A stretch of DNA of 64,000 nt, from the NCBI RefSeq assembly GCF_037042905.1, contig NC_087245.1, forward strand, positions 20,214,001 to 20,278,000, in the 5' to 3' direction. This document shows, one piece after another, positions 9,385 through 64,000 of this stretch. The DNA is from Lytechinus pictus. Taxonomy: Eukaryota. Numbering within the stretch: position 1 is the first letter of the stretch; every line of letters starts with the position of its first letter. The notes beneath the pieces are model-generated. The model searched no databases, had not been told where the DNA came from, and saw only the letters and a list, made by a program, of their open reading frames with translations. A program made the position numbers and the translations under genes.

Positions 9385-9406
9385 GATCAATCAATCAATC
9401 AGATAA

Positions 9407-9483
<77 letters not shown>

Positions 9484-9535
9484 TATGAATGAATGAATGA
9501 ATGAATCAATCAATCAATGAGTCTAACAATCAATC

Positions 9536-9571
<36 letters not shown>

Positions 9572-9640
9572 TCAATGAATGAATGAATCAATCAATAAAT
9601 AAATCGATCAACTAATCGATTCATAAATCCATCCAAATCA
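9385..9640. repeat. Compound tetranucleotide microsatellite (AATC)n/(AAAT)n/(AATG)n
   Basis: Directly visible tandem tetramers. Confidence 0.95.
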
Positions 9641-35302: not shown

Positions 35303-36501
35303 GTTTAGAGTAAGATATGATATCTTCATTGCTCTTTTACGTCTTTCACATGATTTTTAAAACGTACACAATCGCATCTGATAAACCCCAATACACTCAC
35401 CCACAAACACATGACCCATTCACACGCACACAAGAGCATGATTTCATTAGGATTAATGTTAGTTTATTAGAGATTATTGATAAGTCTTCTATTGGTCATG
35501 TTGTGTATGGAATAATTATGTCCATTTTAGAATAATACCTCTAAGGAAATCGTACGTGCTTGCATTATTAAAGAACTTCCTATGAAAAAACAATGGGAGT
35601 TCATGAAAAATTTTCTCGAGGCTTACATCAAAAGGAACTACAGTAGCTTCAAGTTGGTGATTATTATGTTTTATGAAAATGACCCATCAGCTGCCTGAAA
35701 TCATAGACGTGGTTGCGAGTCCATGATCAAATCAAAGGATACGTTTTCTTCCGCTAAAGTTTGGCTAGGTAGACAATATCAAAACATGTGAGCTTAAACA
35801 AACACAAAATGTATCTTTAGGAGGGCTTGACCTCCTTCCTAAAGTATGGTGCTTGGTCTAGCTCATCAAAAATATACAAAAATACACTTTAATTATGAAA
35901 CTTGCATACACTTATGGACGAAACCCTACGTCACCGAACGTTAAAGAACAAGCCTTTAAATTAGCTATCCAAATTTATTGACGCGTTTTAAAGGAGACTG
36001 TTGACCTCTTGAGCTAGTAAAATGAAAGATAATATTCTTATTGGGTCGTCTTGGGATTAAGATATTTTACCCATTTCAAATTTGAAAATGTGGTTGGAAT
36101 TATTCGGGTGTAGACATGTATAAATGTCTGGACATGTACATACACGGTATCACAGGGTCAGGATTGGAATTTTACCTGGAAAATCATTGTTGTCCACATT
36201 TGACTCAGGTCTAAAAGTAAAATTTGATATCTTGGGTTGTTTCTTAAAGCTGTATATACACAGACCTTATTGATGACTAAAGTGACAATTTTTCGTCTTT
36301 ATTAGATATCAGGCATTTTGTCTGAATAGCCCAAATCGAATGTTCTTGTAGTTTTAACAACAATAATATGTTTTAACAGATTTTTAATCTTAAAAGCTGA
36401 TGGAATTCAAAATGTCTGAGGCTATGATAACAGAACTGCCAAATATAGCACAATTGGTCTAATGTAAGAATTCTAAAAAATACGCTTTCATTTTATATAT
36501 A

Positions 36502-38394
<1,893 letters not shown>

Positions 38395-38452
38395 AAAGCG
38401 TATTTTTTTATCTGACGGTCAATCGGATCGGGGTCGCCCTAGCTACTAACCC

Positions 38453-38524
38453 GTCTCTGTGGTCTAGTGGTTAAGGCACCGGCGTTCAAAGCTGGGGGCC
38501 CGGGTTCGATTCCCGGCAGGGACA
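38453..38524 (+). tRNA. tRNA-like gene, anticodon TCA (opal-suppressor-like; not tRNA-Sec fold), copy 1
   Basis: Acceptor GTCTCTG/CAGGGAC; D stem GTCT/AGGC; anticodon stem CCGGC/GCTGG with loop GT-TCA-AA (38486-38488); 4-nt variable loop; T arm CCGGG-TTCGATT-CCCGG; discriminator A; TTTTTT terminator. Function unproven (G32 is atypical). Confidence 0.75.
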
Positions 38525-38860
38525 TTTTTTCGGCATCACCAATTTTTCCAAAAGGGTAGATAGCTCTGGGGAACCCTGATTTAAGCTACGCCTACCATTG
38601 TTCTCTTCATCCATTTCTTTCACACAATATTTAAATAAAAGAGTTGCCAAAGCTGTAGTACATGTATAACTTCACACATTTGTATACTTTCTCCCATACG
38701 TGTACTGTATCAAACAATAGCTTTGATCCAGCTGAGGCATGGCGGCTTGTCGTTGTTCAAAACCCACCTTCACCCGACAAAGGAAATTATAGCTGGTATG
38801 GTGTCGAAAATCTGTCGATCTGACGGTCAATCGGATCGGGGTCGCCCTAGCCACTAACCC

Positions 38861-38932
38861 GTCTCTGTGGTCTAGTGGTTAAGGCACCGGCGTTCAAAGC
38901 TGGGGGCCCGGGTTCGATTCCCGGCAGGGACA
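38861..38932 (+). tRNA. tRNA-like gene, anticodon TCA, copy 2 (identical to copy 1)
   Basis: Same 72-nt cloverleaf; anticodon 38894-38896; T6 at 38933-38938. Confidence 0.75.
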
Positions 38933-39055
38933 TTTTTTCGGCATCACCAATTTTTCCAAAAGGGTAGATAGCTCTGGGGAACCTTGATTTAAGCTACGCC
39001 TACCATTGTTCTCTTCATCCATTTCTTTCACACAATATATATATATATATATATA

Positions 39056-39280
39056 ATATGGTTTCTCAGTCAATGTATATTATTCTACAGAGTTAGCTTG
39101 TAAAGGTGCTCCCTAAGTTAAAATAAAGCCAGCTATATGCTTTTAAAATTCGCAAGCGCCGATCAGGTTCTTGCCTCTAAAATCTCTCGGTGAAAAATTT
39201 ATTTGTTAAGTATAATCATGTATCTTGGCAAGATGATGTTATCTTATCGTCAGTTTTAAAGGAGTTTCTCATTTAAAATA
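39056..39280. mobile_element. ~220-bp (TA)n-associated interspersed repeat, copy 2 (inverted relative to copy 1)
   Basis: Reverse complement of 17934-18151; the same end (ATATGGTTTCTCAGTC) abuts (TA)n in both copies. Confidence 0.85.
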
Positions 39281-45210: not shown

Positions 45211-46000
45211 TCCCATCTCGCTACTATGCTTATTTGAACAAGCATAATGGATGGTAGAAATAGCAACGTGTATTTCATGTATCCCTGATACGTCAGATAC
45301 AAAATACATCATTATCAACCTCTTAAATATATTATTCATTCTGCTCTATAACAGCTTTAATATACATATCGACAATTCATAGTTACTTGAACTAAAAACT
45401 GAAATGAAACTTTTGATCGTTTGCAGAATCTATACCGGTATTCATGTAGTTTTAAGTCTTATACATTGATAAGCAACACTGTAAATGCCTAGATACTTTT
45501 ACTGAAGGTTTCAGGGGATTTTCCCGGAAAACCGTACGAATGCAGTTGAAATGAGCCATTAAACTACAAAATCATCGTCGTGGAGAAAGACGTCAGATAG
45601 AAGAAAGTGATTTATCTGATACTCAATGTAAAGGAATGATACTTCGAATTATAGCCCTGCAGTTACGTTCACTGTCAGATTGTATCAGAATTTTTAGTGC
45701 ATTTTGTGTAAATGTATGGAATTTTGAATATATTTTTGGAGAATACGTGTCATATGTCATTCCATAGAATTGAGCCCTAATCCTTAAATGAACTAGGAGC
45801 AGTTATACAACTTTCTTTTAGATCCGTCTATACGTATATTCACAAGCATTGCCAGGTTTATCAATTAAGCAGGTACTTTAGGAAACAGTGCGAGGGGAAT
45901 GTATAAGTCTCACTGAAATGCGTTTTCATTTTGAAACTCGAGGAAACGAATATCTCATTACAACATTGGTCAAGGCTAATGCAACTGCCAATTATTTGTA

Positions 46001-47251
46001 CTAACAAAAAACAACTTCACATTCATGGGCAAGCACTACCTACAGATATTCGGTACAGCAATGGGCACCCGGATGGCTCCTTCATTCGCCTGTCTCTTCA
46101 TGACGAAGCTGGAACAGCAGATGTTAGATTCAGCCCCCTGTCGCCCATGGATTTGGTGGCGTTACATAGACGACATTTTCTTCATCTGGACCAGGGATGA
46201 AGACAGCCTCCATACATTCATTGACCACATCAATTCCTTCCACAGGACCATCCAATTCACTTCTGATTTCTCCCAACAGGAAACCCACTTCCTTGATGTT
46301 ACAGTCCAGAAAAAGTCTAATGGTATCACCACTACCCTATTCTCTAAACCCACAGATACCCACCAGTACCTCCACTCATCCAGCTGCCACCCCCGTCACT
46401 GCAAAACCGGCATCGCTTACAGTCAAGCCCTCAGACTTCGCCGTATCTGCTCCGAGGACCCTGATTTTTCCTTCCATGCCAGGAATCTGCAGAAACATCT
46501 CTGTGCTAGGGGCCACGGGGCCAGGGCAGTCCAACTGGCAATTAACAAAGTTCGTTCTCTCCCCAGATCTGAAGTTCTCAAACCAAAAAGTGACAAGGAG
46601 ACCACCGACAGAATACCGCTTGTGACCACCTTCCATCCCAATCTACCCCCTCTCCGCAAAATCCTGTTTGATAACCACCACATTTTACACACTTCTGATC
46701 GTCTCCAACAGGCCGTTCCCGATACTCCCCTTCTAGCATACCGACGCCCACCGAATCTCAGGGACCTCATTGTTCGTGCTGAAGTGCCCTCCCTCACTAA
46801 CCATTCTTCTCCCATACAGCATGGCACCTTCAAATGCACCAGCAACAGGTGCATCATATGTGAAATACACCTTCACGAGGGCGATACTTTCACCAGCAAC
46901 TCTACCAGCCTGTCTCACCAAATCAAGGGCAACATCACATGCACTACCACTAATGTTGTATATCTCATCACTTGTAGAGTTTGTAGGGTACAATACATAG
47001 GGGAAACCAAGACCAAACTCAAGAAACGATTCTACGGGCACAGATCCACCGTCAACACAGCAAAGCTGGACACTCCAGTTGGCCGCCATTTTAACCTCCC
47101 CAACCACTCCATCACTGACATGATGCTACAGGGCATCGAATCTTTAGGTACCCGTCCTGACTCAGTCCGTACTAGCAGGGAGAAGCTCTGGATGAGACGA
47201 CTTCGCACCACCCAACCTCATGGCCTGAACATCCAAGAGGGGAACGACTGA
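46001..47251 (+). CDS. Penelope-like RT (C-terminal part) + Cys-rich linker + GIY-YIG endonuclease, N-terminally truncated
   Basis: LTKNNFTFMGKHYLQ, GTAMGTRMAPSFA, WWRYIDDIF, HFLDV, PPNLRDL, CTSNRCIIC linker, NVVYLITCRVCRVQYIGET, RFYGH, HGLN. No stops or frameshifts; the Met at 46025 is internal. Confidence 0.95.
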   Translation, partial: LTKNNFTFMGKHYLQIFGTAMGTRMAPSFACLFMTKLEQQMLDSAPCRPWIWWRYIDDIFFIWTRDEDSLHTFIDHINSFHRTIQFTSDFSQQETHFLDVTVQKKSNGITTTLFSKPTDTHQYLHSSSCHPRHCKTGIAYSQALRLRRICSEDPDFSFHARNLQKHLCARGHGARAVQLAINKVRSLPRSEVLKPKSDKETTDRIPLVTTFHPNLPPLRKILFDNHHILHTSDRLQQAVPDTPLLAYRRPPNLRDLIVRAEVPSLTNHSSPIQHGTFKCTSNRCIICEIHLHEGDTFTSNSTSLSHQIKGNITCTTTNVVYLITCRVCRVQYIGETKTKLKKRFYGHRSTVNTAKLDTPVGRHFNLPNHSITDMMLQGIESLGTRPDSVRTSREKLWMRRLRTTQPHGLNIQEGND

Positions 47252-48160
47252 TTTTTCTTTCCTATCCACTTTCAATTTATATATACATATGATTTTTCCC
47301 CTCAGCTCTTTTGAATAGTTACATTATAGTTTCTTACTCTACTTTCCTCCCATATCTCATACAAGCTCAGCTCCAATTTTTCCTTCCTTATTCAGGCGAT
47401 ATAATAATTATATATATATATATATATATATTTGTTTTTTCTCCACTCACCTCTTTTAGATTTACCACATTTGCTTATTTACATGTATACTATGGTTTCT
47501 TCATAATACACCCCCTCTCTTCTATATTTGCTTTTACCCTTTTAGGCAATTTGCTTCCTCTTTTTCACATATACAGAATTTTTTTTCTTTCCTACTATAT
47601 AGTCTTATGTTTTTTCCCGTCACACCTAGCGGATTACCATATCAGTTACACCATATGTGTATATATTTATATATATTTTTTCATATACATTTCTTTTTTG
47701 GATATATTTATATACATATCACTTATAGATACATATTTACACTTACCTTCTTCTCTTAGTTTGTTTAATGCTTTATCATATATACTTATATGTCTTTTGC
47801 ACATTATCAGTTGTTCCCCATTCTTTTTCTTCTTTCCCCCCCCCCCACTCTTATGCACCAGTTTATTAAGCCTTTCTTTGTAACCTGTTTGACCCACCTC
47901 TCACTAATTCTCTAGTTATTCATCCCTCTATCACTGTTTTGTTCCAGATCCTGTTTGATGTTGCCTGCCTCATTATCTTAATCCCTCTTGGCCTTACTTA
48001 CACTAACTTCCCTTTGTGTCTGCCTACTCCTTTTCTTTCATCCCCTTCACTAACCTGATTGGTCTTCTCTTACTCACTAATGCCCCTTTTGTCTCCTTGT
48101 TTCTAGTGTTGCTGTAGCTTGTTTGTGGTCTATATTATGGTTGTTCCACTTTATATGTTT

Positions 48161-48218
48161 GTCATTTTGCCTCCGACGAAGATTCTGCTAGGATCGAAAG
48201 CTTAGGCCCCTTTTTGAC
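48161..48218 (+). ncRNA. Minimal type I hammerhead ribozyme with variant core (CCGACGA)
   Basis: Stem I GCCT/AGGC (plus GTCA/TGAC); core CCGACGA 48173-48179; stem II GATTCT-gct-AGGATC; GAAA-GC-TT with palindromic AGCT stem III. Confidence 0.8.
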
Positions 48219-51200
48219 TTTATAATTATTTGAACTATAAAATGACTTACTATTCCGACTGTCTGGTTGATATTATGAGCTTAATTAATTATTTAGCGTC
48301 GCTGATCATTAATTTTTGCAAGATCTCTGTCTTATTTTGAAATAAAACTTTGTACTCATAAAATGGAGAGCATGAATTAGATATCGAGGTAAACCTCGAT
48401 GAGTGGGCACCACGGTTCAGTTAAATGAGTACTCTTTATGTATATCTTGTCATCCTTCGCAAGATTTTACGTCACAGAAGCTCTACTTCAAGGGAGAGTA
48501 AAAGACTATAAACATGAACGAGAGCAAATGAATGAAAGATGAAAGGATATAAACGGAAGTATATACTACGAGTGGGGAATAGGTGTAAATCTTGTAAGAG
48601 CATCGTAACGTCAAGGGCACAAACTGGCGCAATCTTAGCTGCTTAGCTACCTCTTCTGCATTCGTTCCCATAAGCATCAGCTTTAACATGCTCGAGTGTC
48701 ATTTTAGAAATCGACTAAAAATATTGCTCTTCAAGGGTCACATAGTCAGCTTTTTCTCTCAGATTCATTCCAACCAAAGCAGATATAATATTGACAGCAA
48801 ACATAGAAGCATTGATGAACATCAACTCTATAGGTACCCCAAGTGACTAAGTAGAGAGGTTTTAATTCTCCATCATTGTGCAAAAGACGAGGTCGTGTTA
48901 CGGGTCTCGACGAGCTCCAAGATACATGTCATAGGTCTGTCATTCGATATTATTTCAACGGAAATTTCGTCCCATCCTCCGTTCAGTTCAACTTTTTTGA
49001 ACAGCATCTTGTGTCTCTAAGACCCAGTTTTGGTCAGATGTACATGTTTCTGTTCAGAGGATGAAGGCATGTCATGTAGCTTACCGTTGATCATCCTTTC
49101 AAGAACGAAAGAATGATATAAAGAATTTTAACGTCCGAAATAACATTTCAGAAATAACGTTACATTTAATTGGACGAGTCTACTCATTCCATAAGATTGG
49201 ATATGTTTATCCCTGTGAAGTAACGTCTGTAGTTCCATTTTCATCCTCATATCGATTTACACCTAAGATGGAAGACGCGTACCGTCAATGAATTAGCATT
49301 TAACACATGAAAACATTATCATTCTTTCAGAATAATTTTTTTTGTAGTATTCAAGATGCAGCAACCTGGAGAATGATACGTCAATTTTTATTTTTAGAAA
49401 ATAGGTTTTAACTCTTGATTAACGATTTCGTTGGTGACGAGCAAATACCATCTCAGTACAGGAGCTTTCGTGTTTCTATTTAGAATTTTATTGAGTTTTC
49501 ACTGCTCAATGAAAGAAATGAATAGAAAAATATTTACGCTCTGTACACGTTACAACTTTTTTCATTGAGATATAAAAAAAAATCCTTTCTTTGTATATTG
49601 GGGACAATATCATTTTTCCAGAAATATCTTTATCATTCTCCATTCGATATTATAGTATGGATGGTACTTTGTTTAGAGTTCGTGGTGGGCGAGTGAGCTC
49701 TATTTATTGTTCTCACTGGAATCTGACACTTTTCCCTCTTTAACTCAATTATTCTCTGGTATCATTCATCGTCGCAATATTTAATAATCGATAAATAAGT
49801 TTGTCTCGACAAACCGGTGGAGCCTGCACTGAATCGATCGATGTAAAACAAAGTATAATTTTTCAAACATAACTTAACTTTCTTCGTCTCAAGTTTTATA
49901 TCTAACATTGACGATCCTACAGGGTCTAACAAGGTTAAGAATATCTTTCTCTGGATGCATCTATAGTTGCACAGCTTCTATTCTTCCTCCTATGCTGGAA
50001 TCTATATTAAGAGCTTAAATCAAACATTGGGAGATTGGCCCATCGTGACGATCTGCGCTTTACTATTCTTTACCCAATTAGACATTTGTGGATACATTAA
50101 GATGGGCCGTTTAAGAATCTCGATTACACATCTGATATGAGGGTATAACACTAATGGGCAGGTCAACATGCTCTCTTCGGGAGACTTATTTTAACATCAA
50201 TGAACAATGACTGGCGCACTGCGAGAAGCAAACATAGTTTCACTCAAATCCATAGTAATTTCACTAATGACGGGGGTAAGATCAATCGGCGGGTAGGAAG
50301 AATCTGTTTTCCGCGCTTGACCGATTTGGCATGATGGTGTCTGTGCATGCAAGCCAAGACTGAAACGGATACCCCCTTTTAGGATTTACATATACATTTG
50401 ATTTATTGTTGAAGAATAACTCTTAATCGCAATATTTTCAACCAGTGATGATTTTTTTTAAATCTTTGAATATACCACAATGCTTCAATTACATTTCAAT
50501 TAAAAATGACGTCAGAAGAGTTTTTTTATTTGAGGTAATGCCTTCGACATGTGCGGATGTTCATGAACATACATGTATTTCATGATATTGTTAAAAAAAT
50601 TGTGTATTAGTTAAAACAACAAACAACCGTATAATTCTCAACCACATCCTGATAGTATGATGTATTTAAGATACATATGCTGCACAATTGTGAACACGGG
50701 TATAAATTCATAATTCTTGTAATTTCTTTCACCTGATTACGTTGTGGTAAACGTTGTTACTTTTCACATTAAACACGGTGCGTCTAATCAGAAGATTTAG
50801 TCATGAAACTACTTCTGAGTGAGAAATAAATTTGTACTTATAAACTCAAATGCGTTATAATTTGGATAGACTGTGCGGTTTTGTATAACACGAACTATTC
50901 CTTGAATATGGGAGCGGAGTTAAATATCGCTTGACGGATAATTTGAAGAATAATTAGTTCACAGTCTTTGAGATGATCAACAAAGAAATACACAGCTATA
51001 TCTGACATGCGAGCGCAAGCCTTATAACTTCGTCATTTTTCATGTGATAAAGTAACCTTTTTTAAGCGTACGTGATTTAAATAGAAGAGTATTCATAATC
51101 CATTTCAAGTGCATGAAGTAAAAAGAAAGATCAGAAAAAAGGGGAAATACAATTAACCAGTTATCCACATTCGTAAGGAAATAAATATTGATTTTGAGGT

Positions 51201-59875: not shown

Positions 59876-60539
59876 CGGATGAACTCTGTGTGTAGTATAA
59901 TGATGAGTTTCTTGTATCGGAGTTTTTCCGCCGGTAACTCTACGTCTGCGTTAGACCAAACAAAGCTGATTATTTCAGTTGTATGATTAACGTTGACGTG
60001 AGTGGAGACCAGTGAAGAAATATAATTGAAATAAATCTGCTAATCTCTATGTGCTTCATTAATCATAAGACCACAATGGGTTAGATCATATAGATACATT
60101 TTTCACTCAGGGCGTAAATAACCTAATTTTTGTCAGTATGCTTAACATCCTCTATACTTGGATAAATAGATTTGTTCGGAAAAAATATGGAAGATTTAAA
60201 CTGTCAAATAGTCTGAGTAATACATTTGTAGGTCTGTTTCATGTTCAAACGAATCAATACTGTGATAGGGTTATTACTTTCCGCCTAAGCCCCAGGGGAA
60301 CAGCTCATATAGTATTCGTAGAACGTGGAATGCGATTAAGAGCAATGTATTATTATGTTTGACACTCAATCACTGAATTCCAAGAAATGTTAAAGTAGAT
60401 ATAATTAGAAATTTAAATATTAACTGTCATATCCTTTTAATCGGGTAAAAAGAAAAACACTTATTGCAATATTTGAATGTTTTCGAAGAACGAAAAGTTG
60501 AAAAGTAGAAGAATACACTTCTAATTAAAACTTGTCAAA

Positions 60540-63128
60540 AAGCTCTTTCCATTCAGTTCTTTAAAGCTCTACCAAATAATTCTATTCTTTAAAGCTCAAT
60601 CCATTCCATTCTTTAAAGCTCTATTCATTCATTTTTAAAGCTTTATCCACTCAATTCTTTAAAACTCTATCATTTCAATTCTTTAAAGCTCCTATCAATT
60701 CAGTTTTTTTTTTCTTCTATCCATCCAATTGTTAAAAGATTTATCCATTCCATTCTTTAAAGTTCTATCCATTCAGTTCTTTAAAGCTATATCAAATCCT
60801 TTCTCTGTCCATTCCATTCTTTAAAGCTCTATCGGTTCAGTTCTTTAACGCTCTATCTATTCAGTTAATGGAATGGAATGGATAGATCTCTAAAGAATGG
60901 AATTGAAAGAACTTTAAAAAACCAAATTACTAGAAACTTAAAGAACTGAATGGATAGTGTTAAAGAAATGAACGGATGGAGCTTTACATAATGGAATGAA
61001 TAGACCTTTAAAGAATGGAATGGAAAGAGCTTTAAAGAATGGAACGGATAGAGATTTAAAGAATTGAATGTAGAGAACCTTAAAAACTGGAATGGGTAGA
61101 GCCTTAAAGAACTGAATGGATAAAGAAAGGAATTGATTGAGCTTTAAAGAACTGAATGAATAGAGCTTTAAACAACTGAATGGATAGAGTGTTAAAGAAC
61201 TAAATGGATAAAGAAAGGAATTGATAGAGCTTTAAATCCTGAATGGATAGATCTTTAAAGAATGGAATGAATAAAGCTTTAAATAACTGAATGGATAGAG
61301 CTTTAAATAACTATTTAGCGCTTTAAAGAACTGAATAGAAGGAGCATTAAAAACTGAATCGGTAGAGTTTTTAAGAACTGAATGGATATAGAAAGGAATG
61401 GATAGAGGTTAAAAGAATCGAATGAAAAAGCTTAAAAGAATGGAATGGATAGAACTTAAAAAAATGGAATGGAGAGAGCTTTAAAGAATGGAATTGATAG
61501 ACCTTTAAAGAATGGAATGAATAGACCTTTAAATAATGCAACGGATAGAGCTTTAAAGAATGGAATGTATTCAGCTCTAGAACTGGAATAGGTAGAGTTG
61601 TAAAGAACTGAATGGATAAAGAAAGGAATTAATTGAGCTTTAAAGAATGGAATGGATAAAACTTTAAACAATTGAATGGATAGAGCTTTAAAAGAATGGA
61701 ATGGATAGAGCTTTAAACAACCGAATCAATAGAACATTAAAGAACTAATTAATGGATAGTGTTTTAGAGAATTTAACAGATGGAGCTTTAAAGAATCAAA
61801 TGGATAGAGCTTTAAGTAATGGAATGTATAGAGCTTTAAAAACTGGAATGGGTAGAGCTTTAAAGAACTGAATGGATAGAGCTTTAAAGAATGGAATGGA
61901 TAAAACTTTAAACAACTGAATCGATAGAGCTTTAAAATAATGGAATGGATAGAGCGTTAAACAACCGAATCAATAGAACCTTAATATAGTTTTAGACCAC
62001 TGAACTGATAGAGCTTTCAAGAATGGAATGGATAGAGCTTTACATAATGGAATGAATAGAGCATTAAAGAATGGAATGGATAAAGCTTTAAACAACTGAA
62101 TGGATAGAGCCTTAAAGAATTGAATGGAAACAGTTTTTAAGAACTGAGTGAATATAGAAAAAAATGGATAGAGCTTTAAAGAACTGAATGGATAGAGTTT
62201 AAAGAGTGGAATTGATAGAGCTCTCTCCATTCCATTCTCTAAAGCTCTATCCATTCTTTTCTATATCCACTCAGTTCTTAAAAACTTTTTCCATTCAATT
62301 CTTTAAGGCTCTATCCATTCAGTTGTTTAAAGCTTTATCTATTCCATTCTTTTAAAGCTCTATCCATGCAGTTCTTTAAAGCTCTATCAATTCCTTTCTC
62401 TATCCATTCAGTTATTTAAAGCTCCTTTCATTCTATTCTAAAAACTCTATATCCGTTCCATTCTTTAAAGCTCTATCCGTTCCATTCTTTAAAGTTCTAT
62501 CCATCCAATTCTTTAAAGCCCTATCCATTCGGTTCCTTAAAGCTCTATAATAATATGACAATAATAGTAGTAATAATAATAATAAGCATTTATATAGCGC
62601 TTTATCAATCTACGACTGCTCAAAGCGCTTCACAATTATTATTACCCGGTCACTGGATTCACAGCATTTCAAGCAGCCTGTTAGGCGCACACTTGCTAAA
62701 CCAACCACAATGACAGTTGTTTCCTACCGGTACCCAATAAGCATCTGGGTGGCAAAATGTGGATTGACGCCTTGCCAAAGGATGCTAGGCCATGATGGGA
62801 TTCGAACACACGACCCTCTGTTTACAAGGCGAGAACCGCTACACCACGGCGCTTCCACTTCTATCCATTCAATTCTTTACAGCTGTACCCATTCCATTTT
62901 CTAAAGCTATATCCATTACATTCTTTAAAGCTCTACCCATTCATTTTTTTAAAGCTCTATACATTCAGTTATTTCAAGCTTTATCCATTCTCAGTTCTTT
63001 AAAGCTCAATCATTTCTTTTTTTTATCCATTCAGGCTCTACCCATTCCAGGTTTTAAAGCTCTATACATTCCACTCTTTAAAGCTCTATCCGTTCCAATT
63101 CTCAAAGCTCTATCCATTCTATTCTTTA
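60540..63128. repeat. 24-bp minisatellite (AAAGCTCTATCCATTC[C/A][A/G]TTCTTT)n with internal orientation reversal
   Basis: Forward ~60540-60866, reversed ~60867-62220, forward ~62221-63128; interrupted by a SINE. Confidence 0.95.
62549..62857 (-). mobile_element. tRNA-derived SINE with L2-like 3' end and (ATT)n tail
   Basis: Minus strand GGAAGCGCCGTGGTGTAGCGG..GTTCGAATCCC head, CCTTTGGCAAGGC body, AAGCGCTTTGAG..AGCGCTATATAAATGC(TTA)n tail. Confidence 0.88.
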
Positions 63129-64000
63129 ATTCAATTCAATTTCAATTCAATCTTTATTTCGCAAAATAAGATAAAAATACAAAGAAACATCAAATAATGT
63201 GATTAGATAATAAAATAAATTGCGTGGCTTTCCATGAAGGTTATAAGAAACCTGTAAGGCTGGATCGCCAAAACATAGTAAAACGACAACAATATTGAAT
63301 TAAAAAAACACAGAATGTCATATCATTATAGTAAATACAATGTAGGAAAAAGGAGGAAAAAAACAACAACAAAGAATACAAAAAGACACGAATCGAAGGA
63401 GGGGGGGGGGTAGATATGGTACAAGTAATGCATTGATATCAACTGCGAAAATTAATAATCATTTACTAGAAAAATTTTGTACTGTTTTCTAAAGGATGAT
63501 ATAAATTGTGAATTAGTTATTATTTGGGGAATCTCGTTCCATTGTTTGGGACCTACATAACTCAATGATTTAGCTTCGTGACTAGACTTGATAGACCATA
63601 AATGAAATTTATTGGAAGAACGGGTATTATGATTATGAACTTGATTATTGTATTGAAAAAGATCTGAAAAAGGAGTGGGTAACAACCTCTTCTTGTACTT
63701 ATACATAAATATTGCGAGTTCTTGCTTATTAATATCATATATATTAAGTAAAGACAATTTCTTAAATAAAGGTGCGGATGGTGCTAGGTAATGGGAATTG
63801 GTAATTATTCTTAAACATTTCTTTTGAATTTTGAATATTGAGTCCAATTCATATGAGGTAACATTGGTAGCCCAGACAATATTGCAATATTTTAAATAAG
63901 GGAAAATTATGGAATGGTATAGAGTTATCAGATTTTTATGAAGTAAACTATGCTTAAGTTTGTAAATTAAACCAGTATTCCTACTTATCTTATGTAATAC
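63128..64000 (-). mobile_element. 3' end of a CR1/L2-group LINE (Crack/Daphne-like), continuing past the window end
   Basis: ORF2 C-terminus, 3' UTR, then AATAAA and an (ATTGA)n tail at 63128-63160. Confidence 0.88.
63452..64000 (-). CDS. LINE ORF2 C-terminal (post-RT) region, partial
   Basis: Open from the window edge: KISRNTGLIYKL..LYHSIIFPYLKYCNIVW..IQKKCLRII..SAPLFKKL..HNHNTR..GPKQWNEIP..FRK. Confidence 0.9.
   Translation of the reverse strand, partial: VLHKISRNTGLIYKLKHSLLHKNLITLYHSIIFPYLKYCNIVWATNVTSYELDSIFKIQKKCLRIITNSHYLAPSAPLFKKLSLLNIYDINKQELAIFMYKYKKRLLPTPFSDLFQYNNQVHNHNTRSSNKFHLWSIKSSHEAKSLSYVGPKQWNEIPQIITNSQFISSFRKQYKIFLVNDY

Follow-up and report, generated by a model that had tools for sequence, protein, structure and literature searches.

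Twin UCA-anticodon tRNA-like genes in Lytechinus pictus: probable passengers of a young, non-coding, tandemly inserted retroelement

Two predicted tRNA genes whose anticodon would pair with UGA lie close together in the genome of Lytechinus pictus, raising the question of whether they decode anything or simply travel with the DNA around them. In the window, by which we mean the whole 64-kb stretch of DNA analysed, ARAGORN finds exactly two tRNAs, at 38453–38524 and 38861–38932, both on the forward strand and both with the anticodon tca at position 34. A first-pass annotation, made from the sequence alone, had described two identical 72-nt cloverleaves, each having an A box, a B box and a T6 tract, and that description holds good. 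The two 72-mers are 100% identical, and each scores 58.9 bits against Rfam RF00005 (gathering score 29, E 3.5e-10) over its full length (1–71 of 71), with no non-standard pairs flagged by the alignment in either cloverleaf. By inspection of the sequence, both contain the A box TGGTCTAGTGG and the B box GGTTCGATTCC, elements with a known consensus in Pol III promoters, and the same boxes occur in the genome's own tRNA-Glu genes. TTTTTT follows directly upon each discriminator base, at 38525–38530 and 38933–38938, with a T5 run at 38543–38547 downstream of the first; the genome's own tRNA-Glu genes terminate in T4–T9 runs within about 10 nt. The cloverleaf occupies positions 44–115 of a 408-bp unit, of which the window holds 1.56 copies between two (TA)n tracts, as follows.

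38186–38389, no strand: (TA)102 microsatellite, the presumed target tract on the 5′ side (TRF: period 2, 102 copies, 100% matches)
38390–38409, forward: 20-nt junction segment from the TA tract to unit position 1, unlike the usual unit end (sequence)
38410–38817, forward: full 408-bp repeat unit, unit positions 1–408 (direct repeat, spacing 408)
38410–38452, forward: 43-nt leader, complementary in part to the D and T arms of the tRNA downstream (predicted minimum free energy (MFE) helices)
38453–38524, forward: tRNA-like gene 1, 72 nt, UCA, G32, discriminator A (ARAGORN, Rfam)
38525–38530, forward: T6 run resembling a Pol III terminator (sequence)
38525–38637, forward: trailer, unit 116–228, ending in TTCACACAATAT, the commonest 3′ end of the family (3′-end counts)
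38638–38817, forward: inner 180 nt, unit 229–408, with a second 3′-end site, TTCACACATTTGTATA (unit ~262–277), and a 12-bp hairpin
38818–39045, forward: second, partial unit (1–228), 3′-terminal, ending at the canonical 3′ site (direct repeat)
38861–38932, forward: tRNA-like gene 2, same sequence as gene 1, followed by T6 at 38933–38938 (ARAGORN, Rfam)
39037–39059, no strand: short TA tract on the 3′ side, overlapping the AU-rich end of the unit (sequence)

The direct repeat formed by 38410–38637 and 38818–39045 is thus 228 nt long, 98% identical and spaced by 408; in our set of loci, array L031 has a length of 636 and two units, starting at unit position 1 and ending at 228. The final 8 nt of the junction segment recur in some copies, the alignments of three other loci (L002, L014 and L018) reach back to 38402 and that of L001 crosses the whole segment, which may represent a unit end in variant form or a 'tail' of the insertion.

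The identity of the tRNA itself can be narrowed considerably. As in tRNA-Sec and natural opal suppressors, the anticodon is UCA, preceded by U33 and set in an A36-A37-A38 loop. True tRNA-Sec is about 86–90 nt long, with a long variable arm and extended acceptor and T stems. In contrast, the present genes measure 72 nt and combine a 7/5 acceptor/T arrangement with a short variable region, so that a tRNA-Sec architecture, already rejected in the first-pass annotation, is ruled out and the 'SeC' label given by ARAGORN reflects the anticodon only. Bona fide tRNA-Sec (RF01852, 76.9 bits) is found elsewhere in the genome, at C2:54020026 and C25:889015. Elongator tRNAs typically carry a pyrimidine at position 32. 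The loop seen here, G-U-UCA-A-A with a discriminator A, has the atypical G32 that the annotation had pointed out, and with G32-U33-UCA-A37-A38 it combines neither a pyrimidine at 32 nor a sense anticodon as a canonical elongator would. The D loop and T arm are common to the tRNA-Glu(UUC/CUC) genes of the genome, again as first proposed, and alignment with tRNA-Glu(UUC), the one isotype compared, is compatible with a one-base register shift. A tandem tRNA-Glu array on C16 (386-bp period) was considered as the source of the unit and rejected: likeness is confined to the tRNA body (75% over 64 nt) and does not extend to the spacers.

The unit is far from unique. A search with the anticodon-arm pattern gives 1,934 matches (1,189 + 745) in the 812-Mb genome, against none for the reversed control, and the inner 180 nt of the unit retrieves 1,487 first-look candidates genome-wide. 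Units of 404–411 bp recur across the 60 loci fetched, where arrays span 0.1 to 4.3 units within 3 kb, and an array on C2 reaches at least 29 units at a spacing of 406 bp. The earlier suggestion of a mobile repeat is thereby strengthened, there being some 1,900 or more copies with the signature of retroposition described below.

Is the tRNA preferentially conserved within this family? In a search with the 72-mer, all 40 full-length matches scored, a subset of 95 first-look candidates, were 100% identical. TCA is kept in 98 of the first 100 genomic copies listed, and tca in 49 of 50 ARAGORN calls from 24 independently chosen loci. The anticodon is retained, but the remainder of the unit is kept too. 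Across 81 copies selected through the inner region instead of the tRNA, the tRNA diverges from the majority base by 1.01%, the leader by 1.65%, the trailer by 1.77% and the inner part by 1.18%. The tRNA is therefore about 30% less diverged than the remaining unit (1.0% against 1.5%), with a p of 0.02 calculated over non-independent cells. As the flanks have held their sequence almost equally well, the tRNA's high identity is attributable to the youth of the family. The tRNA-like gene of the window is in fact a minority variant, whose G at unit position 111 forms a U:G pair within the acceptor stem: among 54 unbiased copies, two are identical to it and 26 carry A at that position. Similar sequences are also visible in Logan contigs of two further organisms, where 30/30 and 29/30 bins are covered at 90% likeness or better; under two further species labels, no anticodon variant at 10% or more appears among the rows listed.

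The manner of insertion is the most informative feature of the family. It was studied in 55 distinct complete complexes in the 60 loci, drawn from the best-scoring matches rather than from the whole genome and ranging from 51 to 1,756 bp. Outer 5′ ends (n = 37) are spread across unit positions 1–360. Outer 3′ ends, in contrast, fall at two sites in 58 of 73 cases, 35 at unit 228–231 and 23 at unit 269–277. At 61 of the 73 outer 3′ ends, a (TA)n tract of at least four repeats lies within 24 bp, and on the 5′ side (TA)n adjoins 26 of 37 outer ends; target-site duplications are unreadable inside such tracts. Copies occur in head-to-tail runs, and 18 of the 55 complexes contain copies on both strands. 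Every one of these 18 is arranged head-to-head, with no tail-to-tail pair among them (p about 4e-6 if orientation were random).

These boundaries bear directly on the role of the tRNA. As in tRNA-derived SINEs, a tRNA-related module with A and B boxes forms part of a high-copy retroposed element. In those SINEs the tRNA-related part is the 5′ head and acts as Pol III promoter of the entire element, uninterrupted by a terminator. The differences are that a full cloverleaf begins only after 43 nt of the unit, with T6 and T5 runs immediately behind it, and that insertions are tandem or inverted, not single. The first-pass view that this is not a classical SINE head is borne out, with the tRNA at unit 44–115 and none of the 37 outer 5′ ends at its first nucleotide (unit 44 ± 3). 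The T6 and T5 runs directly after the tRNA tell against a template made by Pol III. The alternative role proposed, that of a tRNA-mimic processing or promoter module, is a less likely one, to which insertion boundaries lend no support: besides the absence of 5′ ends at the tRNA +1 position, only two of 37 lie near its 3′ end at unit 116 (0.63 expected, p 0.13).

Taken together, the two tRNA-like genes are probably parts of one insertion, of 1.56 units, of a young, selfish, non-coding and non-autonomous retroelement family with a 408-bp unit. The pattern of ends suggests RNA-mediated copying, probably by a Penelope-like enzyme and with priming by microhomology, and the embedded tRNA presumably does not decode. 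A tRNA-sense RNA exceeding one unit in length, transcribed from an array already present or perhaps circular, would serve as template for reverse transcription at a (TA)n microsatellite that has been nicked. There the target's TA 3′ end would anneal to either of the AU-rich sites that follow a TTCACACA motif (unit ~228 or ~277), and cDNA synthesis would then cover one or several units before halting at a variable point. Since (TA)n has one and the same reading on its two strands, a second nick could prime likewise, which would explain the frequent head-to-head pairs in which both canonical 3′ ends face outward. A tRNA-Glu-like gene with its own terminator would travel in every copy, looking intact because the family is young and its master copies keep the tRNA, and the UCA anticodon would be a frozen property of the founder.

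The case for a Penelope-like enzyme comes from comparison with described elements. The relevant sections of Craig et al. (2021, PMC8557442) report that insertions of Naiad and of further Penelope-like elements are strongly truncated at the 5′ end, show partial tandems and a neighbouring inverted copy that is itself 5′-truncated, and favour (TA)n; they describe Naiads as lacking canonical hammerheads, with non-autonomous relatives that form multicopy head-to-tail insertions. The present family resembles Penelope-like elements and MRC1 of Chlamys, as presented there, in its 5′ truncation, tandems, inverted copies, (TA)n bias and absence of a hammerhead. This combination makes an element of the Naiad/Neptune kind the most likely supplier of the enzyme. 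The family departs from Penelope-like elements in that its unit lacks an RT/GIY-YIG coding part, and in that no similarity of its 3′ end to an autonomous element was found in two families compared. A complete terminated tRNA gene, as held by the unit, is not described for Penelope-like derivatives in those sections (PMC8557442). A link to Penelope-like elements had been raised earlier on account of UGA codons; it finds support in the style of insertion, but not in UGA or selenocysteine.

Potential partners were sought both in the window and beside the arrays. The window contains a Penelope-like fragment at 45980–47251, comprising RT (YIDD), Cys linker and GIY-YIG, for which 99 matches were scored out of 1,149 candidates, mostly 95–99% identical; Penelope-like elements are abundant and young in this genome. 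For now, this family is rejected as the partner: it has no sequence in common with the unit, and four 3′ ends examined lie in non-TA DNA. The TA tract found about 165 nt past its stop codon is conserved and lies within a 3′ UTR of about 980 nt, not at its end. A second Penelope-like family, beside arrays at two loci (L014 and L016), is a nested insertion into an array. A Pfam scan of 31 ORFs, each 130 aa or longer, in the flanks of the 60 loci detects only nested or neighbouring elements, namely GIY-YIG at the same two loci and a LINE RT at L057, along with a Tc1-type transposase (L040) and host SRCR and Ig exons.

The LINE match at L057 is relevant to an unlikely alternative, in which a SINE-like element is moved by a LINE with an RNA that terminates in TA repeats or has its priming site there. 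Truncation at the 5′ end, a fixed 3′ end by a microsatellite and inversions of the twin-priming type are hallmarks of LINE retroposition also, and at this locus the array's TA tract is preceded, at a distance of about 40 nt, by the end of a LINE-type RT fragment (YADD). However, that copy is old, 70–86% identical to its nearest relatives, and is a single case; no 3′ similarity between a LINE and the unit came to light. Furthermore, ready-made head-to-tail multimers with head-to-head pairs in one complex out of three correspond to the Penelope pattern as described in PMC8557442.

Slightly less probable again is a scheme in which the tRNA does work for the element, taking the place of the hammerhead in a ribozyme-free counterpart of the animal retrozymes. 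Here host RNase P and/or RNase Z would cut tandem transcripts at the tRNA into pieces of unit length, or the tRNA would drive expression in some other way, and the unit RNA, perhaps circularised, would be the template for rolling-circle copying by a Penelope-like enzyme. By recruiting host tRNA-processing enzymes or Pol III factors, the tRNA would mark off tandem transcripts, or license them, so that they can be copied in Penelope fashion into TA microsatellites. An antisense leader built into the unit would let the RNA alternate between a rod, with the cloverleaf masked, and a form in which the cloverleaf is free, and some 1,900 Pol III units could supply UGA-pairing tRNA-like RNA as a by-product. 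Animal non-LTR retrozymes are described by Cervera and de la Peña (2020, PMC7229834) as non-coding tandem units of 150–450 bp with a type I hammerhead, a range into which the 408-bp unit, in dimers to at least 29-mers, falls readily. Likeness extends, from what is set out there and in Li, Clavereau and Pollet (2026, preprint), to non-coding units a few hundred bp long that are present as dimers to long multimers, to highly self-paired predicted RNA and to a proposed dependence on Penelope-like elements. Unlike retrozymes, our unit has a tRNA gene in place of a type I hammerhead: no ribozyme of any kind, hammerhead included, was found in 38380–39080 (Rfam, E up to 10), and even in this permissive search the two tRNAs are the sole matches above gathering score.

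Structure prediction, which also fits the main account, favours this scheme in part. The sense unit RNA is predicted to fold at −134 kcal/mol (z −5.8, with none of 100 shuffles as stable), the antisense at −117.6 kcal/mol (z −1.9). The strongly structured sense fold is rod-like, the trailer (unit 116–228) and unit 332–408 forming a long imperfect rod and unit 247–258 pairing with 287–298 in the inner hairpin. Predicted MFE helices between leader and tRNA (unit 12–20/94–102, 22–26/88–92 and 31–39/56–64) suggest that the leader would sequester the tRNA in long transcripts. On the other side, the cloverleaf is masked in this predicted long-RNA fold, and forcing it costs 21 kcal/mol. The two AU-rich 3′ ends would be easily explained by internal priming on a circle or multimer. 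RNase P and RNase Z leave 5′-phosphate and 3′-OH ends. These differ from the ends joined by RtcB, the ligase that PMC7229834 implicates for retrozymes.

The evidence from RNA is similarly divided. Raw RNA-seq reads of the family number 1,643 and 1,052 of about 12.9 million, with thin and even depth over the unit and equal mate orientations. Retrozymes are expressed as circular RNA, and reads across unit junctions, as a circle or multimer would give, are present here, with some 200 in X21 and about 110 in X22; tandem copies in the genome predict the same reads. There are no pile-ups of read starts or ends, at the tRNA borders or elsewhere, in these standard cDNA-type libraries, which are blind to small RNAs. 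Among the rows listed, sites variable in at least 10% of RNA reads are fewer in the tRNA (2/72) than elsewhere in the unit (37/336; Fisher p 0.03), so that the tRNA is poorer in variable sites among transcribed subfamilies. The reads stem largely from a diverged subfamily that is not represented among 121 distinct genomic copies. When the scarcity of outer 5′ ends at the tRNA borders is also considered, copying of longer array transcripts by a Penelope-like enzyme, with the tRNA as passenger, appears the better account.

That the family should consist of working opal-suppressor or recoding tRNAs, transcribed by Pol III, charged and reading UGA, is very improbable. The intact cloverleaf, the U33 and A36-A37-A38 loop, the boxes and terminator, and the constancy of the anticodon here and under the two further species labels are all as such a function would have them. 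However, the near-equal conservation of the non-tRNA parts points to the youth of the family rather than to selection on decoding, G32 is atypical and a canonical tRNA-Sec exists elsewhere. The enzyme that charges tRNA-Glu reads the anticodon, which sits badly with a tRNA-Glu-like body bearing UCA, and some 1,900 suppressor genes, if active, would presumably do harm. Standard RNA-seq, which cannot see small RNAs, contains neither a tRNA-shaped product nor processing ends. Both the idea of a spreading opal suppressor and a suppressor function for the UCA tRNA are unsupported.

Small elements with repeats at both ends also invite comparison. Plant Cassandra TRIMs are LTR-type elements with a primer-binding site and polypurine tract, each of their terminal repeats containing a 5S rRNA gene. 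Like them, our family is a small non-autonomous retroelement with a Pol III gene per repeat and the capacity for tandem arrays, but its polarity is that of non-LTR or Penelope-type elements. The account of biv-TRIM of bivalves in Satovic et al. (2019, PMC6934838) includes direct repeats of 100–250 bp around a short core, solo and tandem forms and no clear primer-binding site, all as here; as far as that account goes, the repeats have no reported tRNA gene, their inner motif is absent from our unit and the phylum is different. An origin at the DNA level, whether as recombination satellite, foldback element or MITE, Helitron passenger or TRIM with 228-bp terminal repeats, is scarcely credible: the window copy alone does resemble two 228-bp direct repeats flanking a 180-bp core, head-to-head copies resemble foldback arms and the long C2 array is satellite-like, but unit number is continuous across loci and varies, like the starting point, from one to the next, 5′ ends are scattered and 3′ ends fixed, terminal inverted repeats and tail-to-tail pairs (0/18) are absent, the sequence after 38637 has no tRNA-complementary primer-binding site and the unit lacks the inner motif that is conserved in the bivalve TRIM.

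In the literature searched, which left Repbase-type libraries outside its scope, we found no description of such a tRNA-carrying element; a paper on repeats of Adamussium (PMC5874043) likewise offered nothing that bears on it. For annotation, the immediate consequence is that tRNA scans of this genome will report about two thousand high-scoring 'suppressor' or 'SeC' tRNA genes; as these calls are repeat copies, they should be masked. For retroelement biology, the family represents a clean, young and abundant case of Penelope-style tandem and inverted insertion at TA microsatellites that involves neither a coding part nor a ribozyme, and could help reveal what Penelope-style enzymes recognise. 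The tRNA part may yet matter to the element and, if it is needed, would constitute a second solution, beside hammerheads, for handling tandem retroelement RNA.

Both tRNA-like genes of the window probably arrived in a single insertion of a selfish retroelement that codes for no protein and lands in TA microsatellites in Penelope-like fashion. They are the only two tRNAs found by ARAGORN in the 64 kb, and their 72-mers show no differences.

38453-38524, + strand: tRNA-like gene 1 (ARAGORN, anticodon tca at position 34)
38525-38530: T6 run (TTTTTT) directly 3' of the gene 1 discriminator
38861-38932, + strand: tRNA-like gene 2 (ARAGORN, anticodon tca at position 34)
38933-38938: T6 run (TTTTTT) directly 3' of the gene 2 discriminator
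38410-38637 and 38818-39045: direct repeat holding both genes (228 nt, 98% identity, spacing 408 bp)

ARAGORN labels the genes 'SeC' because of the anticodon alone. With the Rfam tRNA model each scores 58.9 bits (threshold 29), full length and with all pairs standard, and each has promoter boxes TGGTCTAGTGG and GGTTCGATTCC, a seven-base anticodon loop (G-U-U-C-A-A-A) and A as discriminator base. The folding energy of the 72-mer by itself is unexceptional (z -1.35), as is usual for single tRNAs, where the covariance score is the measure that counts. The first-pass annotation had described the two genes from sequence and proposed such scoring; ARAGORN, Rfam, the sequence and the repeat comparison bear it out on all points.

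A genome search with the 72-mer gave 95 first-look candidates, the best 40 of which were scored; all 40 are full-length copies with 100% identity. The anticodon arm, as a pattern with the loop left free, has 1,934 matches (1,189 + 745) in the 812-Mb assembly and its reversed control 0. The 180 nt separating the window's two copies produced 1,487 first-look candidates genome-wide, with full-length matches 96-100% identical among the best 40 scored. From these three sets of matches it follows that the tRNA is part of a 408-bp unit, numbered here from window position 38410.

Unit 1-43: leader
Unit 44-115: tRNA
Unit 116-228: trailer
Unit 229-408: inner part

Units are arranged head to tail, 1.56 of them in the window copy and at least 29, spaced 406 bp, in an array on contig C2. 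The tRNAs are the only Rfam matches above threshold within the unit, where even with the cut-off relaxed to E 10 no hammerhead or other ribozyme was found. The 43-nt leader (window 38410-38452) resembles a shortened antisense copy of the tRNA T and D arms and may descend from a head-to-head junction that became fixed in the master copy.

The insertion pattern of the family is visible in 60 loci of around 3 kb each, which hold 55 distinct complete insertion complexes of 51-1,756 bp. Outer 5' ends (n=37) are scattered across unit 1-360. Outer 3' ends (n=73) favour two sites, unit 228-231 (35 ends) and unit 269-277 (23 ends), at both of which TTCACACA is followed by an AU-rich stretch. A (TA)n tract adjoins 61 of the 3' ends and 26 of the 5' ends. 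All 18 two-orientation complexes are head-to-head with 3' ends outward and none is tail-to-tail (p about 4e-6). The window copy matches this pattern, reading (TA)102 at 38186-38389, a 20-nt junction piece, unit 1-408, unit 1-228 and TA. Target-primed reverse transcription of a tRNA-sense RNA is what the fixed 3' end, the variable 5' end and the inversions point to. A microsatellite, once nicked, would anneal by its TA 3' end to the AU-rich sites of this RNA, and both nicked strands may prime alike since (TA)n is self-complementary, which would explain the head-to-head pairs seen in one in three insertions. That the genes lie inside a mobile repeat, as first proposed, is confirmed by the 1,934 anticodon-arm matches and by the fixed 3' and scattered 5' ends.

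Craig et al. (2021, PMC8557442) describe the same insertion traits for Penelope-like elements, namely frequent truncation at the 5' end, partial tandems, an adjoining inverted 5'-truncated copy and microsatellite bias. They also describe Naiads as biased to (TA)n and without canonical hammerheads, and non-autonomous relatives as multicopy head-to-tail insertions. The family is closest to non-autonomous Penelope-type tandems and to animal retrozymes, but differs from both in having no ribozyme and in holding a terminated tRNA gene. No description of such a family was found in the literature, curated repeat libraries lying outside the search. One array (L036:701-1435, and L007 with the same flanks) is broken at unit 165-177, where about 730 bp of inserted DNA with inverted-repeat ends ATGGACCTATGAAAAGATGGAC... 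/ ...GTCCATCTCTTCATAGGT is probably a small nested DNA transposon.

The window itself contains a candidate source of the enzyme.

45980-48231, + strand: 5'-truncated Penelope-like copy, with RT (YIDD), Cys-rich linker and C-terminal GIY-YIG in 45980-47251 and its 3' end at 48231

Its family is abundant and very young (mostly 95-99% identical in the best 99 scored of 1,149 first-look candidates); the longest open frames reach 981 aa. The 3' UTR of the window copy, about 980 nt, has a variable internal TA tract at about 47411-47432, downstream of the stop codon, and ends ...GATCGAAAGCTTAGGCCCC-TTTTTGACTTTATAAT, hammerhead-like by eye and below the Rfam threshold. As a partner this family was provisionally rejected: it has no sequence in common with the unit, the TA tract after the stop codon is internal to the long 3' UTR, and the four 3' ends inspected, that at window 48231 and those of three further copies, are set in ordinary, non-TA DNA. 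A LINE, instead of a Penelope-like element, is an improbable source, kept because a LINE-type RT fragment stops about 40 nt ahead of the TA tract holding the array of locus L057; that fragment, however, is old. A second Penelope-like family, with 39% protein identity to that of the window, lies by the arrays of loci L014 and L016 and was discarded as a nested insertion cutting the array at unit 194.

Other repeats occur in the window. A probable Tc1/mariner-type DNA transposon at 36494-38193 ends directly at the (TA)102 tract; its inverted arms, 175 nt long with 87% complementarity, are 1,350 bp apart and flank a partial ORF that has a Sleeping Beauty-type HTH (36936-37271). A 24-bp satellite, its unit about GAATGGAATGGATAGAGCTTTAAA with about 70% matches, occupies 60539-63129 in both orientations with higher-order periods of 48-244 bp, and an (ATCA)57 microsatellite lies at 9386-9611.

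The unit tRNA has its D loop and T arm in common with the genome's own tRNA-Glu(UUC) and tRNA-Glu(CUC) genes; the acceptor, D and anticodon stems differ, yet are fully paired in the repeat's version. With tRNA-Glu(UUC) it is 75% identical across 64 nt, in a comparison made with tRNA-Glu isotypes alone. An origin of the unit from a tRNA-Glu array was rejected, the array spacers being unrelated to it. Such arrays on contig C16 have a 386-bp period. Ordinary tRNA genes, among them tRNA-Lys (UUU/CUU) genes spaced about 460-490 bp apart, form dense tandem clusters in this genome at C4:9,700,000-9,736,000, C16:2,595,300-2,598,800 and C17:25,858,000-25,881,000, and the tRNA model gives about 73,000 rough first-look candidates genome-wide. 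The unit tRNA is also not a tRNA-Sec, as first stated: with the tRNA-Sec model, two genuine 86-nt loci elsewhere score 76.9 bits.

T6 and T5 runs lie directly downstream of the unit tRNA, and T4-T9 runs behind the genome's real tRNA-Glu genes. Pol III would therefore stop past the tRNA, so that its promoter, unlike a SINE tRNA head that can drive a template, cannot make one longer than the unit. A tRNA-guided processing module, one of two roles initially suggested, receives no support from insertion boundaries: of the 37 outer 5' ends, none falls within unit 44 +/-3 and two are close to unit 116, against 0.63 expected (p 0.13). The other, an opal-suppressor tRNA, is not upheld as regards decoding, conservation extending over the whole unit; a decoding role is unlikely given G32, the tRNA-Glu-like body and the roughly 1,900 copies.

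The 40 identical 72-mers are a biased sample because the tRNA itself was the query. A less biased sample came from a search with the inner 180 nt, whose 30 loci supplied 81 distinct copies. TCA is kept in 53 of its 54 complete tRNA segments; the commonest form (A at unit 111, acceptor stem Watson-Crick throughout) accounts for 26, and the window's (G at unit 111, a U:G pair) for 2. ARAGORN called 50 tRNAs (49 tca, one tta) on 24 of the loci, a set leaving out the window itself and five loci overlapping neighbours. Among the first 100 genomic anticodon-arm matches listed, 29 of them from the single C2 array, the loop is GTTCAAA in 91 and TCA is present in 98. Neither the freely varying anticodon nor the pseudogene scores that the first-pass annotation regarded as damaging were encountered.

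Share of bases differing from the majority in these copies (all sites; CpG sites removed)
tRNA: 1.01%; 1.04%
Leader: 1.65%; 0.51%
Trailer: 1.77%; 1.75%
Inner part: 1.18%; 1.19%

The tRNA is about 30% less diverged than the remaining unit pooled (odds ratio 0.68, p 0.02, with non-independent cells). The first-pass annotation had proposed to test whether the anticodon and stem pairing are conserved better than the flanks; the anticodon is kept, and over all sites the tRNA is only slightly less diverged (1.01% vs 1.18-1.77%). The tRNA is not set apart from its flanks, the whole family is young, and anticodon conservation says little because all of the unit is conserved.

Permuted to the insertion 3' end, a one-unit sense RNA has a predicted energy of -134 kcal/mol (z -5.8, 0/100 shuffles as stable) and the antisense RNA one of -117.6 kcal/mol (z -1.9). 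Single-sequence prediction, the family being too young for covariation, gives a long imperfect rod (unit 332-408 with 112-183) and pairing of the leader with the tRNA D and T arms (12-20/94-102, 22-26/88-92, 31-39/56-64); the cloverleaf, if enforced, would cost 21 kcal/mol.

Raw RNA-seq reads with at least 90% likeness to the window copy number 1,643 and 1,052 of about 12.9 million (about 0.01%) in two runs labelled as the same species; by copy count the family's share of DNA is roughly 0.1%. Depth tracks the copy-number profile, mate orientations are equal, and reads span the unit junction, as genomic tandems would also give. Read starts and ends form no pile-ups along the unit in these two cDNA runs, a library type that cannot show a 72-nt product. 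Just 90-95% likeness is seen in 1,117 of the 1,643 reads, which come from a subfamily absent among the fetched loci. Among the sites listed, those varying in at least 10% of reads are 9/43 in the leader, 2/72 in the tRNA, 5/113 in the trailer and 23/180 in the inner part (tRNA vs rest, p 0.03), the one hint of the tRNA being preserved in master copies. In two other organisms, contigs span the complete unit and carry the family majority bases, with no anticodon change among those listed. A complete UCA-anticodon tRNA-Glu-like gene probably just happens to ride in this retroelement.
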